Shown here in pieces: positions 5,266 to 43,570 of a stretch of DNA of 64,000 nt. Below the pieces are notes generated by a model. It made no database searches and was not told where the DNA came from. It saw only the letters and a list, made by a program, of their open reading frames with translations. The position numbers were made by a program, and so were the translations under genes. Source of the DNA: Parcubacteria bacterium DG_74_1 (lineage in GTDB: Bacteria; Patescibacteriota; Minisyncoccia; Minisyncoccales; DG-74-1). The stretch spans positions 9,169 through 73,168 of the forward strand of contig LJNE01000006.1 of the NCBI GenBank assembly GCA_001303125.1. The letters are read 5' to 3'. Numbering within the stretch: position 1 is the stretch's first letter; each line of letters opens with the position of its first letter.

Positions 5266-6767
5266 ACCTCCTTTCTCTGGTTATATTTTGCTAAAAAAGC
5301 GTCTGCTCTCCTAGCAATTTTAAAGGCTTTTTCTTTGGCGTAACCGATGAACTTCTCGGGCTCTTGCAACAAGTCGATTAGCTCGCTGGGAATATTAGCT
5401 ACTACCGGTTTTAGTCTTGGTTTCTCGTCTGCCAACAGAGACAACTCCGTTATCAGGTGACGACCAGAAACCTGAGAGCGCGGCATAAGAGTATGATTTA
5501 CCAAGCTATGGGCATCACCTTGATAACCTGCCATCACTAAGGCAACATAGACCGCCTCAGACAAAACAAGGTGCCTCTGGATGGCGAAATTGTGCTTCAG
5601 GGCTTCCGTGTCAACAGAAATTCTAGGCACAATCCTATTCGCTGTCTCTAATTGATGTTGAGTGAGAACAATTATGCCCGGGAACTCCCGCATGACACAC
5701 ATTCCAGTGGCATCACGCTGGTGATCAGAGATTACTACATCCAGAACCTTATGAAACTCACTCTTAACAATAGTGTAAATGCCCTCGATGCCTTCCCAAC
5801 TTATAGGGTTTCTCTTATGGGGCATAGCCGAAGACCCGTCCTGACTACCCTCAAAGGGTTCTACCACCTCTGCTAGCTCCGTTCTTTGAAGATTTCTGCA
5901 ATCCCGGGAAATCTGCCCTAAAGCACCGGAAAGCAAAGTGAACTCAAGGAGAAAACGAGCTAACGGTTCGGGTGGTAAAATTTGGGTGGAAATTGGAGCA
6001 GGAGAAAGCTTAAGTTCGGCCAGAACTAATTCTTCAAAGCTTTTACCGAGCATCTCTTGGGACTTTTTCTCAAACCCCAAAGCTACTTGGCAGTTGTAAG
6101 CTCCTACTGGGCCGCTAAACTTTCCTACTAACTCTGCTTCTCTGTCTACTAAATGCTCAGCTATGTCAATAATTCTTCCCAAAATAGTTGCTAACCAGAA
6201 GCCGACCGTGATAGGTTCGGCGTGCTGACCATGAGTCCGGCCAATCTGGACGGTATCGGAAAATTGAGCCACCCTCTCTTTCAGTGACTTAATTAGCCCC
6301 AAGAGAGCTGGAAAACTAACTTCCCAGAAAGCTCTCTTATAAGCAACTATCCTGGCCGTGTCAATGATGTCATAGCTGGTAGCTGGAACATGAAGCCAGC
6401 GTGCTAAAACCTTTACTAACTGTCGCCTGGTGGCTATTAAAAAATAGCGGATAGCTGTTAATAGGGCCCTGATATCATGTTTGGTAATATTCTTTTCGAT
6501 GGCATCTTCAAGTGTGGTAGCAACCTTAGAACGAATCATTTGATACATCTCGTCGGTTAAAAGAGTCGCTACTCCCGGTGGAAGCATATCGAGCTTAGCT
6601 GAAACTTTCAGTAGAGCCCACTCAACCTCGAAATAGAACCTGGCAATGTTATCGTGGCCGAAAAATGGCTTGAGTGACGCGGGCTGATAACGAGGGTTTC
6701 CTGGCAACTCTAATCTCTCTGGCATTCTTTTTATTTTCTTGACAATTTCTTTTACTTGGCTAGACAT
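5262..6767 (-). CDS. purB: Adenylosuccinate lyase (fumarate-lyase superfamily)
   Basis: 501 aa. GRTHGQHAEPIT, ISTQI, the signature GSSAMPHKRNP, and HQRD are present. It overlaps the upstream OMPDC-fold gene by 4 nt. Confidence 0.85.
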   Translation of the reverse strand: MSSQVKEIVKKIKRMPERLELPGNPRYQPASLKPFFGHDNIARFYFEVEWALLKVSAKLDMLPPGVATLLTDEMYQMIRSKVATTLEDAIEKNITKHDIRALLTAIRYFLIATRRQLVKVLARWLHVPATSYDIIDTARIVAYKRAFWEVSFPALLGLIKSLKERVAQFSDTVQIGRTHGQHAEPITVGFWLATILGRIIDIAEHLVDREAELVGKFSGPVGAYNCQVALGFEKKSQEMLGKSFEELVLAELKLSPAPISTQILPPEPLARFLLEFTLLSGALGQISRDCRNLQRTELAEVVEPFEGSQDGSSAMPHKRNPISWEGIEGIYTIVKSEFHKVLDVVISDHQRDATGMCVMREFPGIIVLTQHQLETANRIVPRISVDTEALKHNFAIQRHLVLSEAVYVALVMAGYQGDAHSLVNHTLMPRSQVSGRHLITELSLLADEKPRLKPVVANIPSELIDLLQEPEKFIGYAKEKAFKIARRADAFLAKYNQRKEV

Positions 6768-34223: not shown

Positions 34224-34831
34224 AACTTTTTTTCTAAGGCCTTTATAAATTCAAGTAGGGTAGAATTATCCACTAATTCTTCTATCTGAATCCACCAAGG
34301 CTCAATTGCAAAACGTTTTTCTTTTTTATAATACTCTAGGGCCTGTAATAAATTTTCTACACGGTCTACTTGACGAACGAACCTACCTTCCGGTGTTAAT
34401 CCCCTTTCGTAGTCAAGCCAAAGACTTTCTATTTCTTTTTTTGTCGTAGGGGCCAGTTTAAAAATTAATTTTTTCAATGCCGTATGTTCTTTTTTGTATT
34501 TCTCGGAAAAAAATTTTTCTTTTTCTTTTTTAGAAAATCTTGGCCATTTTTGGGTTAGTTTTCTCCGTTCCTTCTTATTTCTCGGATGGAGCTGGTGGTA
34601 AGGAGTAGTATCTCCGGCATAAACCTCGCAAATATCATGAATTAGAGAAATTTTAATAACTTTATTCACATTAAGCCTTCTCTTCTTTCCTAAAAGCCAG
34701 GCCATAATAGACATTCGAAAACTGTGAGCGGCAATTGTTTCCGGGTTTTTTATTCCCCTTAATACCCACCCTCGTCTTGGCATCTTTTTTAGTTTTCCGA
34801 CTTCAATTAAAAAATTAACGATGTTCTTCAT
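34217..34831 (-). CDS. HD-domain phosphohydrolase (YfbR-like 5'-deoxynucleotidase family)
   Basis: 204 aa. ETIAAHSFRM..SLIHDICEVYAGDTTPY provides the H..HD..D metal ligands. Confidence 0.8.
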   Translation of the reverse strand: MKNIVNFLIEVGKLKKMPRRGWVLRGIKNPETIAAHSFRMSIMAWLLGKKRRLNVNKVIKISLIHDICEVYAGDTTPYHQLHPRNKKERRKLTQKWPRFSKKEKEKFFSEKYKKEHTALKKLIFKLAPTTKKEIESLWLDYERGLTPEGRFVRQVDRVENLLQALEYYKKEKRFAIEPWWIQIEELVDNSTLLEFIKALEKKFC

Positions 34832-34894
34832 AAAATTAAACCAGGCTTTTGTCCTGGCTTAATGATATCAAAATTTTAAACTAATTTGAAGTTC

Positions 34895-35371
34895 TTAAGA
34901 AGTTTGATACTTTATTTTTTTAATCTTATAAATTGTTTTTACGGGGGAGGAGACTAAAACTGCGTCGCCGACCTTGTGTCCTAAAAGGATTCGGCCGACC
35001 GGTGATTCATTTGAAATCTTACCAACCGTTGGGTTAGCCTCTAAGGTCCCGACAATTTCAAACTCATCTTTTTGCCCGTCTATTTCTACTAAAACCTTTG
35101 CCCCTAGCTGGACAATATTTTGTTTTTCTTTTGGAGGCGGTTTAATCAACTGAGTATTTCTTAAGATATATTTCAACTCCATTATCCTTGACTCTAAAAA
35201 GCTTAAATCTTCCTGGAAAGAGAGGTATTCCGGGTTTAAATCTTCTGAATGCCAAATTTTAGGAACCTCTCCCTTGGTTTTGGATATTTTAAGACTATTT
35301 AAATCTTGGAGCTCTTTCTTGAGCTTTTCTAGGCCTCCTTTGGTTAAATAAAACTTTTTTTCTTGGGCCAT
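34895..35371 (-). CDS. greA: Transcription elongation factor GreA
   Basis: 158 aa with an N-terminal coiled coil (LTKGGLEKLKKELQDL) and a C-terminal FKBP-like domain (ISNESPVGRILLGHKVGD). Confidence 0.9.
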   Translation of the reverse strand: MAQEKKFYLTKGGLEKLKKELQDLNSLKISKTKGEVPKIWHSEDLNPEYLSFQEDLSFLESRIMELKYILRNTQLIKPPPKEKQNIVQLGAKVLVEIDGQKDEFEIVGTLEANPTVGKISNESPVGRILLGHKVGDAVLVSSPVKTIYKIKKIKYQTS

Positions 35372-35401
35372 TTTTTTAAAAAATCCCCTTGGCGAGGGGA
35401 T
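35372..35401 (-). terminator. Intrinsic terminator/attenuator in the greA leader
   Basis: On the minus strand: ATCCCCT-CGCCA-AGGGGAT (7-bp stem, 35383-35401), followed by TTTTTAAAAAA and then the greA ATG. The right arm AGGGGA is the only Shine-Dalgarno-like element for greA. Confidence 0.7.
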
Positions 35402-35425
35402 AAGTTTTCCAGAAGAATTATTTAT

Positions 35426-35539
35426 TCAACTTTCCCCTCGTAAAATCAACGGACCAGAAACATAAATAGCGATGCAGCCTTTCTTACAAGCAGCGCATGA
35501 GTCGATAAGATTTAATTGATTTCTTTCCTTTGGCATCAT
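35426..35539 (-). CDS. Candidate small ORF / leader peptide (37 aa, three Cys)
   Basis: My translation is MMPKERNQLNLIDSCAACKKGCIAIYVSGPLILRGES. It is preceded by AAGGT and a consensus promoter and followed by the terminator. It is below the ORF-track cutoff. Confidence 0.3.
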   Translation of the reverse strand: MMPKERNQLNLIDSCAACKKGCIAIYVSGPLILRGES

Positions 35540-35554
35540 TGTATTACCTTTTAT

Positions 35555-35582
35555 ATTATATTCCTTTAAAAGCCCTTGTCAA
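35555..35582 (-). promoter_or_regulatory. Consensus sigma70-type promoter (TTGACA-16 nt-TATAAT)
   Basis: On the minus strand, TTGACA (35577-35582), a 16-nt spacer and TATAAT (35555-35560). Both hexamers are perfect, and the -10 lies 15 nt upstream of the small-ORF ATG. Confidence 0.6.
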
Positions 35583-35730
35583 GAGGGCTTTGATTCTCTA
35601 AAACTTCTGTTTTAGAATTGATTAAGGGAATCGATTGGCCAGAGATTTATCTTTTTTATTTAGTAAAATAATCTAAAAAGATATGGCCTTGTTTTAGAGA
35701 TTATCTTAACAGATTTAAATTTTTATTCCG

Positions 35731-36756
35731 ATGATTGAAATTGACGGTTCATTTGGTTCCGGTGGTGGCCAGATTCTGCGTACGGCTTGTGCCCTGGCTG
35801 CGATAACTAAAAAGCCCTGCCACATATTTAATATAAGAGTTAAGCGACCAAAGCCTGGCTTGATGCCGCAACACCTTTTTGGTCTTCAGGCTCTAGCTCA
35901 GATTTGTAAAGCTAGACTAGAGGGTGACGAGCTTGAATCAAAAGAAATCAAATTTTATCCCGGAGAAATTTACAAAGACCGAATTACCATCAATATCCCA
36001 ACGGCAGGGAGCATTACTTTAATTTTGCAAGCATTAATCCCGCCAGCCCTATTTGTGCCAAGCATTACAAAAATTTCTTTTAATGGCGGGGCGACCGACA
36101 CCTTTTTCTCGCCGACGATCGATTATTTCAGATATGTTTTTTTGAAAATTATAGAAATAATGGGGGCGAAAGTTAAAATTAACGTTTCAAGAAGGGGTTA
36201 CTATCCAGAAGGTGAAGCAAAAATGGAGGCCGAAGTTTTTCCATCAGAATTAAAGAACCTTAATTTATTAAAAAGAGGGGCATTCAAAAAAATTACTGCA
36301 ATCTCCGGAGCCTCAACTTCTCTAAGAAATAAAAAGGTAGCTGAGCGTCAGTTAGCTGGAGTAAGAGAAGTTTTGGGTAAATTTAAATTACCAACTGAGG
36401 AAAAAATTGAATATTTTGATGTTTGTTGCCCGGGAAGCCAAATTTGTTTGATCGCCGAGTTTGAAAATACAACAATTGGCACCGATAATCTTGGAAGGCT
36501 TAATAAAAGAGCTGAAGATATTGGAAAAGAAGCGGCTTTAGAGCTCCTGAAAGAACAAAAATCTGGAACTTGTTTAGACAAATATTTGGCGGACCAAATT
36601 CTTCCTTATCTGGCCCTCTTGCCCGGGAAAAGCCAGGTCGCTTGTTCAGAAATTACAAAACATTCCCGAACTAACATTTGGGTAATTGAAAAATTCCTAG
36701 ATGGGGAATTCGAAATAGAAAATAGTTTAATCTCTTGGAGTCCTAAAAAAATTTAA
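35731..36756 (+). CDS. rtcA: RNA 3'-terminal phosphate cyclase
   Basis: 341 aa. IEIDGSFGSGGGQILRTACALAAITKKPCHIFNIR..RPKPGLMPQH..GGATD matches the RtcA family pattern. Confidence 0.9.
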   Translation: MIEIDGSFGSGGGQILRTACALAAITKKPCHIFNIRVKRPKPGLMPQHLFGLQALAQICKARLEGDELESKEIKFYPGEIYKDRITINIPTAGSITLILQALIPPALFVPSITKISFNGGATDTFFSPTIDYFRYVFLKIIEIMGAKVKINVSRRGYYPEGEAKMEAEVFPSELKNLNLLKRGAFKKITAISGASTSLRNKKVAERQLAGVREVLGKFKLPTEEKIEYFDVCCPGSQICLIAEFENTTIGTDNLGRLNKRAEDIGKEAALELLKEQKSGTCLDKYLADQILPYLALLPGKSQVACSEITKHSRTNIWVIEKFLDGEFEIENSLISWSPKKI

Positions 36757-43498: not shown

Positions 43499-43570
43499 TG
43501 TCCCCACCAGGAGTCGAACCTGGATCAATGGCTCCGGAGGCCATCACTCTATCCATTGAGCTATGGGGAC
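43499..43570 (-). tRNA. tRNA-Arg (anticodon CCG)
   Basis: The 72-nt cloverleaf folded by hand is GTCCCCA-TA-GCTC-AATGGATA-GAGT-G-ATGGC-CTCCGGA-GCCAT-TGAT-CCAGG-TTCGACT-CCTGG-TGGGGAC-A. The anticodon loop CT-CCG-GA has G37. CCA is not encoded. Confidence 0.92.

Follow-up and report, generated by a model that had tools for sequence, protein, structure and literature searches.

Genome integrity is protected by GreA, a factor that rescues stalled RNA polymerases and keeps them moving, yet how its level is set is poorly understood even in E. coli. In that species the greA leader carries a terminator downstream of a strong promoter, an arrangement that yields short GraL transcripts as well as full-length greA mRNA (PMC2836576), and GreA represses itself in cis through this leader terminator, only in vivo and by way of an unidentified factor (PMC6829880). 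The GraL layout is compact, with about 19 nucleotides (nt) before the terminator and no leader open reading frame (ORF; PMC6829880). Here we describe a different greA leader, found in Parcubacteria bacterium DG_74_1 (a small-genome member of the phylum Patescibacteria) and analysed within a 64-kb stretch of its DNA, which we refer to as the window; all features of this leader lie on the minus strand. It shares with GraL an intrinsic terminator between the promoter and greA, an element that in E. coli serves to tune GreA levels; it differs from GraL in its length of about 170 nt, in having a 37-codon ORF and a covarying antiterminator, and in the phylum in which it occurs.

Attenuation of greA has also been predicted more widely. 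Among gene families with predicted 5' terminators and antiterminators in Proteobacteria, bacilli and Clostridia, greA/rnk ranked seventh (PMC2965389); the predicted greA and rnk leaders came from Enterobacteria, bacilli, Clostridia and Pseudomonas, and were described as RNA-only, with no features common between groups (PMC2965389). The present leader shares with them a conserved 5' terminator with a detectable antiterminator before a gene of the greA family. Reports of such leaders, however, include none from the candidate phyla radiation (CPR) and none with a leader-peptide stop codon that abuts the antiterminator.

In attenuators of the trpL, pheL and hisL class, the terminator forms once a ribosome has arrived at the leader stop codon, because this ribosome hides the antiterminator's 5' arm (PMC1183508). 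The leader described here likewise has a promoter-proximal ORF, and a terminator and an antiterminator that share a strand, but it has neither regulatory codons nor a 1:2 protector (pause) hairpin; its untranslated RNA is predicted from folds to read through, with no super-attenuation, and its target is a transcription factor rather than a biosynthetic operon. In upstream-ORF (uORF) attenuators of antibiotic-resistance genes that respond to translation inhibition, such as the mef/msrD leaders and the Term-seq class, stalling or failure of the ribosome in the uORF reportedly frees the antiterminator and turns the downstream gene on. This is the logic that we propose for the greA leader; resistance uORFs, however, are usually shorter, carry drug-specific arrest motifs and control resistance genes, whereas no arrest motif was identified in the greA leader. 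The E. coli pyrBI attenuator reads the coupling between ribosome and RNA polymerase, not one amino acid, and there a close ribosome prevents the terminator. Physical and kinetic coupling would be the input in both cases, but with opposite sign, as a close ribosome is predicted to favour the terminator of the present leader.

Attenuation of greA and leader-peptide attenuators are each already known. What sets the present element apart, judged from sequence, is a greA leader with an ORF, the lack of both regulatory codons and a protector hairpin (and therefore a predicted default state of ON), a conserved spacing between stop codon and terminator, and the phylum. No description of this element was found in the literature on greA with a uORF or leader peptide, or in that on attenuators of Patescibacteria. 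The element is a conserved cis-regulatory RNA of Patescibacteria, supported by covariation and absent from Rfam, and its motif (a covariance model and about 80 instances) can be used for annotating CPR genomes. We consider it probable, though well short of certain, that it acts as a ribosome-dependent (leader-peptide) transcription attenuator of greA, which would tie expression of this gene to translation of a leader ORF that has no amino-acid-specific codons.

Terminator and antiterminator in the greA leader

The leader contains three segments that can pair in two ways. Segment 1 (CGAGGGGAAAGTT, 35428-35440), the 5' arm of the antiterminator, was recognised from minimum-free-energy (MFE) folds, covariation and comparison of duplex energies with shuffled sequence. 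It pairs with segment 2 (AACTTATCCCCTCG, 35393-35406) in a helix of 13 bp with one bulge. Segment 2 is a shared strand, as its core also pairs with segment 3 across a short loop to form the terminator hairpin ATCCCCT-CGCCA-AGGGGAT (35383-35401), which was identified by a terminator scan and by covariation; terminator and antiterminator are thus mutually exclusive in the window. The hairpin runs into a T6 tract (35378-35383), the expected 3' end of an attenuated transcript of about 170 nt, and the T-run ends 6 nt 5' of the greA ATG. The first-pass annotation had described this hairpin and T-run as a strong terminator 6 nt before greA. Both are present and the stem covaries in relatives, but termination is better regarded as conditional, as the antiterminator, which that annotation missed (segment 1, 35440-35428, with segment 2, 35406-35393), is the more stable fold.

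The duplex of segments 1 and 2 has an energy of -15.9 kcal/mol, against -7.7 +/- 2.2 kcal/mol for dinucleotide shuffles of the upstream sequence, none of which was as good (0 of 200). The folding energy of the leader as a whole is ordinary (z = 0.29); the case for the element therefore rests on conservation and covariation, stability alone proving nothing. At its gathering threshold, Rfam gave a single match in the whole window, a tRNA-Arg at 43499-43570, and none in the leader, which is set apart from GraL by its layout; a scan of 35300-35800 at E <= 10 returned sub-threshold noise alone.

Transcription towards this switch is expected from a promoter with perfect consensus hexamers, TTGACA (-35, 35577-35582) and TATAAT (-10, 35555-35560). 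A perfect TTGACA-16-TATAAT arrangement (12/12) occurs only once in the window, where 0.04 are expected by chance, and four of 100 shuffled sequences yielded one; the promoter reported by the first-pass annotation is therefore present, and unique at this stringency. Transcription probably starts near 35548, a position set by the usual 7-nt spacing from the -10 box. Among 25 relatives, 23 have TTGACA, a 16-nt spacer and a TATAAT-like -10 box 5' of the leader ORF, the -35 hexamer and spacer length being invariant, and relatives without the leader have a like promoter about 20 nt from the greA ATG. Two further observations concern this promoter. Its -35 hexamer forms the loop of a small hairpin, AAGCCCT-CTTGACA-AGGGCTT followed by TTT (35568-35590), which is partly kept in the closest relative, locus L001. 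Across relatives, greA promoters also have in common CTTGACAAGG..TTTCTTG together with the invariant 16-nt spacer, a sequence that could be an operator or merely the promoter style of the clade.

The leader ORF opens with AAGGT and then ATGATG, and comprises 37 codons and a TGA stop (35426-35539; MMPKERNQLNLIDSCAACKKGCIAIYVSGPLILRGES), as had been called before. Downstream of the hairpin the sequence continues with T6, A6 and the greA ATG at 35371, so that the stem lies 11 nt from the start codon. This short gap leaves no space for greA to have a promoter of its own 3' of the hairpin, and a promoter scan of the window found no promoter-like site between the hairpin and greA; initiation downstream of the terminator, which would have counted against the first-pass proposal, thus finds no counterpart in the sequence. 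An internal promoter-like site (35444-35417, 9/12) was dismissed, as relatives do not keep it and a transcript begun there would be without segment 1 and hence always terminate. The regulated gene (34895-35371) encodes a protein of 158 amino acids (aa) with both the GreA_GreB_N domain (PF03449, 34.4 bits) and the GreA_GreB C-terminal domain (PF01272, 66.6 bits), each above its curated cut-off.

The switch in related greA loci

Using the GreA protein, we retrieved 76 loci from uncultured Patescibacteria (Nealsonbacteria, Parcubacteria and Paceibacterota); in the closest of these, L001, GreA is 88% identical to that of the window. Of 74 related Parcubacteria/Nealsonbacteria greA loci, 44 have the complete design of promoter, short ORF, antiterminator, terminator and greA, and in these a covariance model of the antiterminator, R1, has one match per locus, on the same strand and directly 5' of greA. 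In the window R1 has one strong match alone, which spans the whole switch (35371-35451; 56.4 bits, E = 4e-11), and the only other R1 matches with E < 0.01 were reverse-strand ones at the same positions as the true element. Conservation of the ORF and hairpin in relatives, on which the first-pass annotation had staked its proposal that greA is attenuated, is thus borne out, and the unit of promoter, ORF, terminator and greA is real, conserved and looks like an attenuator.

A typical relative has TGAGGGGATTAG, 15-59 nt, CTAATCCCCTC, a loop, AGGGGATTTTT and the greA ATG, and the arm sequences shift in step between lineages (GGAGGTTCGGTAG / CTACTGAACCTCC / GGAGGTTC, and others likewise). In the antiterminator, 87% of alignment cells are paired and ten of the 12 pairs have changed on both sides, with a covariation score of 0.399 as compared with 0.18 for shuffled alignments (0 of 500 as high) and at most 0.153 with partners slid; these counts come from alignments partly fitted to the model itself and, the loci being phylogenetically related, overstate the number of independent events. 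An independent MAFFT alignment, not fitted to the model, gave 84% paired cells, 11 of 12 pairs and a score of 0.255 versus 0.18. In the terminator stem of relatives, 91% of cells are paired and four of eight pairs are compensatory (score 0.311 versus 0.146). The T-run after the stem is the sole invariant block of the family alignment.

The linkage to greA is exclusive. A gene-agnostic DNA pattern of the three segments, run against 241 million metagenome records, gave 33 matches, all 33 of which lie directly 5' of greA, with the start of a same-strand greA homologue within 7-159 nt. No second genuine copy of the switch was found by R1 in the window, in the 76 genome loci or in the 33 metagenome contigs (263 kb). 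One extra weak R1 match (25 bits, L103 1156-1232) was rejected, as it is antisense within a 255-aa ORF.

These comparisons bear on a second claim of the first-pass annotation, namely that the terminator sequesters the greA Shine-Dalgarno (SD) sequence. A fuller form of this explanation would have the greA SD supplied by the right arm of a strong, constitutive terminator, control acting mainly on translation initiation, and a Cys-rich peptide that senses cysteine or acts itself. It draws on AGGGGA, as no other G-rich, SD-like stretch precedes the greA ATG, on the presence in this genome of a few genes with strong SD sequences, and on the true GGAGG found within segment 3 of some relatives. Yet the last G of AGGGGA is 13 nt from the ATG, and by a lenient test any SD-like motif is present in only about 14 of the 54 long ORFs of the window; with SD motifs this rare, AGGGGA at such a distance probably does not function as one. 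Among relatives, between 6 and 80 nt (median 12.5) separate the stem from the ATG, whereas the T-run is the invariant feature, and free RNA does not favour the terminator. Together, the 13-nt spacing, the rarity of SDs, the variable distance from stem to ATG and the conserved T-run point to transcription termination and not to translation control.

The cysteine component fares no better. Although the ORF had been described as Cys-rich, and does have three Cys codons in 37 (with four in L001), these codons are confined to the window/L001 lineage and are absent from most homologous leader peptides, which argues against cysteine sensing; we rejected it as a property of the family. SD sequestration was likewise rejected as the main mechanism, and we regard this explanation as a whole as very unlikely, although the hairpin may have a minor effect on translation. 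As regards translation signals in this genome more generally, many genes in the window have TATAAT 8-17 nt before their ATG, which implies very short 5' untranslated regions (UTRs) or leaderless transcripts, and strong AGGAGG-type sites occur only in one gene cluster at approximately 3.0-6.8 kb.

Proposed role of leader translation in greA expression

The leader ORF overlaps the switch in its geometry, with its stop codon within or next to segment 1. Every element-bearing locus keeps a frame that stays open for 28 codons or more behind a conserved start and ends at or just inside segment 1. ORFs equivalent to that of the window, of 27-48 codons, occur in all relatives with the element, and the predicted peptides are about 28-46 aa long (corrected for promoter position). 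Over the 28 codons before the stop in 25 loci, in-frame stops number zero as compared with 50 and 55 in the other two frames, a test that is partly biased by the choice of frame and in which a 28-codon open frame has a chance of about 0.1 per frame at this composition. The leader ORF of a typical relative ends in a TGA with which segment 1 begins. The window has CGA in its place, so its ORF is four codons longer (RGES) and runs through segment 1, which there consists of the final sense codons CGA, GGG, GAA and AGT and the T that opens the TGA stop.

Relative to the start of segment 1, the stop codon is found anywhere from -7 to +35 nt across loci; what it tracks is the terminator (r = 0.84, a raw value with no phylogenetic correction), and it does so despite antiterminator loops of anything from 15 to 59 nt. 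The distance from leader stop to the left arm of the terminator has a median of 35 nt (interquartile range, IQR, 33-40), and that to the end of the stem a median of 57 nt (IQR 55-62). A ribosome positioned at the leader stop would cover segment 1 or occupy the antiterminator loop while leaving segment 2 free, and would therefore block only the antiterminator.

We compared the energies of the two folds in 36 switches. Of the 36, 29 have the antiterminator as their MFE fold when segment 1 is free, and the antiterminator fold is on average 7.25 kcal/mol better than the one adopted when segment 1 is masked, which contains the terminator. Among full-length leaders, the antiterminator forms in 21 of 25. 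An anti-antiterminator or protector-pause hairpin, in which segment 1 would pair into the ORF, was absent from 23 of the 25 full-length leader folds. As segment 1 has no such upstream partner, untranslated RNA should read through, unlike that of the trp leader.

From these parts we infer that a ribosome decides the fold. Transcription would begin at the consensus promoter, near 35548, and the short ORF would be translated. If segments 1 and 2 pair, the resulting antiterminator would let RNA polymerase read into greA; if segments 2 and 3 pair instead, the hairpin and the U-tract that follows it would act as an intrinsic terminator, and transcription would stop 6 nt before the greA ATG. The default of the naked RNA is expected to be read-through, because segment 1 is transcribed ahead of the other two and forms the stabler helix. 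A ribosome at the end of the leader ORF as segment 2 emerges would have segment 1 masked or trapped behind it, so that the terminator forms and greA is off, whereas lagging or failing leader translation (uncoupling, or slow or stalled ribosomes) would turn greA on. When ribosome and polymerase move together, greA would thus be attenuated, and more of an anti-backtracking factor would be supplied exactly when polymerases lose the ribosome that pushes them. A closely trailing ribosome suppresses backtracking of the polymerase, and a greA that is switched on when coupling fails would therefore be homeostatic. GreA-dependent polymerase speed could feed into the same timing.

Several observations weigh against this attenuator model. 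The terminator rather than the antiterminator is the MFE fold in seven of the 36 switches, and T-runs are poor in the divergent relatives L004, L005, L031 and L059; the limits given above on the covariation counts and on the correlation of stop with terminator count in the same direction. So does the architecture in part, as neither a protector hairpin nor a conserved run of regulatory codons was found in the leader ORFs. No conserved SD sequence precedes the leader ORF among 25 relatives (although this is normal here, SD motifs being rare in the genes of the window), and that the ORF is translated, from a message with a very short 5' UTR, is something we infer. Selection at the amino-acid level appears slight or undetectable: the ratio of non-synonymous to synonymous differences per site (pN/pS, Nei-Gojobori) over all pairs of leader ORFs is 0.79-0.84, indistinguishable from the 0.68-0.90 of frame-shifted controls, and pairs of close ORFs differ by 42 synonymous and 64 non-synonymous codon changes. 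The synonymous pattern of substitution suggested as a check on the ORF thus cannot be told apart from that of frame-shifted controls. Conservation of the three codon positions over the last 16 codons (0.50, 0.55 and 0.50) is marginally periodic.

The same data are relevant to the notion, also put forward in the first-pass annotation, that the ORF is a free-standing micro-protein. On this account an independent micro-protein gene with its own terminator precedes greA, which is expressed by leaky read-through; in a variant, the transcript of about 170 nt is a trans-acting small RNA (sRNA) like GraL. There is a common peptide pattern that such a gene might explain: leader peptides usually start M-L-x-K-N, those outside the window/L001 lineage resemble ML.KN...KWSYATIVVLFGKIIR, and most have a polar N-terminus, then a hydrophobic stretch, and end in F-G-K-(I/M)-(I/T)-(R/C), with some synonymous variation at conserved F, G, V, L, A and T positions. 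In the window/L001 lineage, however, the peptide sequence drifts freely (three synonymous and 11 non-synonymous codon changes between the two), which together with a pN/pS of about 0.8, like that of the frame-shifted controls, leaves this notion weak. Five leader peptides searched against Pfam and NCBIfam at E <= 10 had no match to any family. Nor would a plain unit of gene plus terminator have a role for a covarying antiterminator, and the element is never found away from greA. As for the sRNA variant, a role in trans would add to attenuation rather than replace it. We conclude that translating a frame of given length to a given end point appears to be conserved, far more than the peptide product, which argues against a free-standing micro-protein; we think it very unlikely that either form of this account is the main explanation.

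A more serious competitor retains the switch but has it decided by RNA polymerase kinetics or by a protein factor, translation of the ORF being irrelevant or secondary; GreA-dependent release of a polymerase paused in the A/U-rich spacer, as in GraL autoregulation, would be an example. E. coli GreA boosts termination at its own leader terminator, and its catalytic activity is required for this (PMC6829880). A spacer motif, AAATTATTCACTTTAAAAC, is conserved in one subclade of the present family, and both the weak amino-acid-level constraint on the ORF and its lack of a conserved SD sit well with a minor part for translation. Against this, the open frame with its conserved start is kept in every element-bearing locus, and a constrained distance between stop and terminator has no explanation without ribosomes. 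We therefore regard a purely kinetic or factor-based decision as rather unlikely; the two models are in any case compatible, as the timing with respect to the ribosome could itself be set by how fast GreA lets the polymerase move.

If the ribosome-occlusion model is true, the leader would be a simple natural sensor of whether ribosomes keep up with polymerase, one that feeds back on a factor that rescues polymerases left without a ribosome. We would go further only tentatively: that the physiological signal is transcription-translation coupling itself, read by the leader so as to set the level of an anti-backtracking factor, is a possibility, but we hold it to be well on the doubtful side. A distance of approximately 35 nt is roughly the minimum spacing between ribosome and RNA polymerase in expressome structures. 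Given a stop codon at about this distance 5' of the terminator, a ribosome tightly coupled to the polymerase would wait on it as segment 2 is made and force termination; with an uncoupled or backtrack-delayed polymerase, the ribosome would have gone or never arrived, the antiterminator would form and greA would be transcribed. Since GreA speeds polymerase through pauses, the same device would close an autoregulatory loop of GreA, and the ribosome would then be a factor of the sort still missing for GraL in E. coli, where autoregulation works only in vivo.

GreA protein and neighbouring features

The GreA of the window aligns end to end with E. coli GreA (PDB 1grj), and differs from it at the tip of the coiled coil (residues ~41-49), where it has SEDLNPEY as compared with HGDLKENAEY in E. 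coli (EDL--NPEY aligned to GDLKENAEY). In the alignment with 1grj an equivalent of D41 is present, and the equivalent of the catalytic E44 falls in the two-residue gap. As the tip of the clade's GreA is two residues shorter and has no aligned E44, its cleavage activity should be treated as putative. The protein's score against the anti-cleavage factor Gfh1 is also almost as high as its score against GreA.

The gene that follows greA, starting at 34831, encodes an HD-domain protein and is preceded by a hairpin of its own (34838-34860, minus strand), AAGCCAGG-ACAAAAG-CCTGGTTT followed by AATTTT, which ends 6 nt before the ATG and lies 3' of a predicted extended -10 promoter (34890-34862). A hairpin and T-run abutting a start codon are therefore not unique to greA here. 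On the other side, the divergent neighbour (35731-36756, plus strand) encodes an RtcA-type RNA 3'-terminal phosphate cyclase; L001 shows little conservation over the 148 nt that separate rtcA from the greA leader promoter, while the leader proper is about 86% identical.

Two further elements were seen close to greA in relatives. L003 (2949-3000), L008 (2931-3000), L030 (~307-364) and L090 (~125-192) have some 60 nt of conserved extra sequence after the leader terminator and before greA, with a hairpin, GATGAAT-n4-GATTCAT, and possibly an ORF of 12-13 codons starting MF(D/N)E. In L091 (~6492-6650, reverse strand), where it occurs twice, and in L071 (~1080-1105), a different sequence, AGTCGAATTTCTACTACCGGGT, lies directly before the greA ATG and may be another greA-proximal element.

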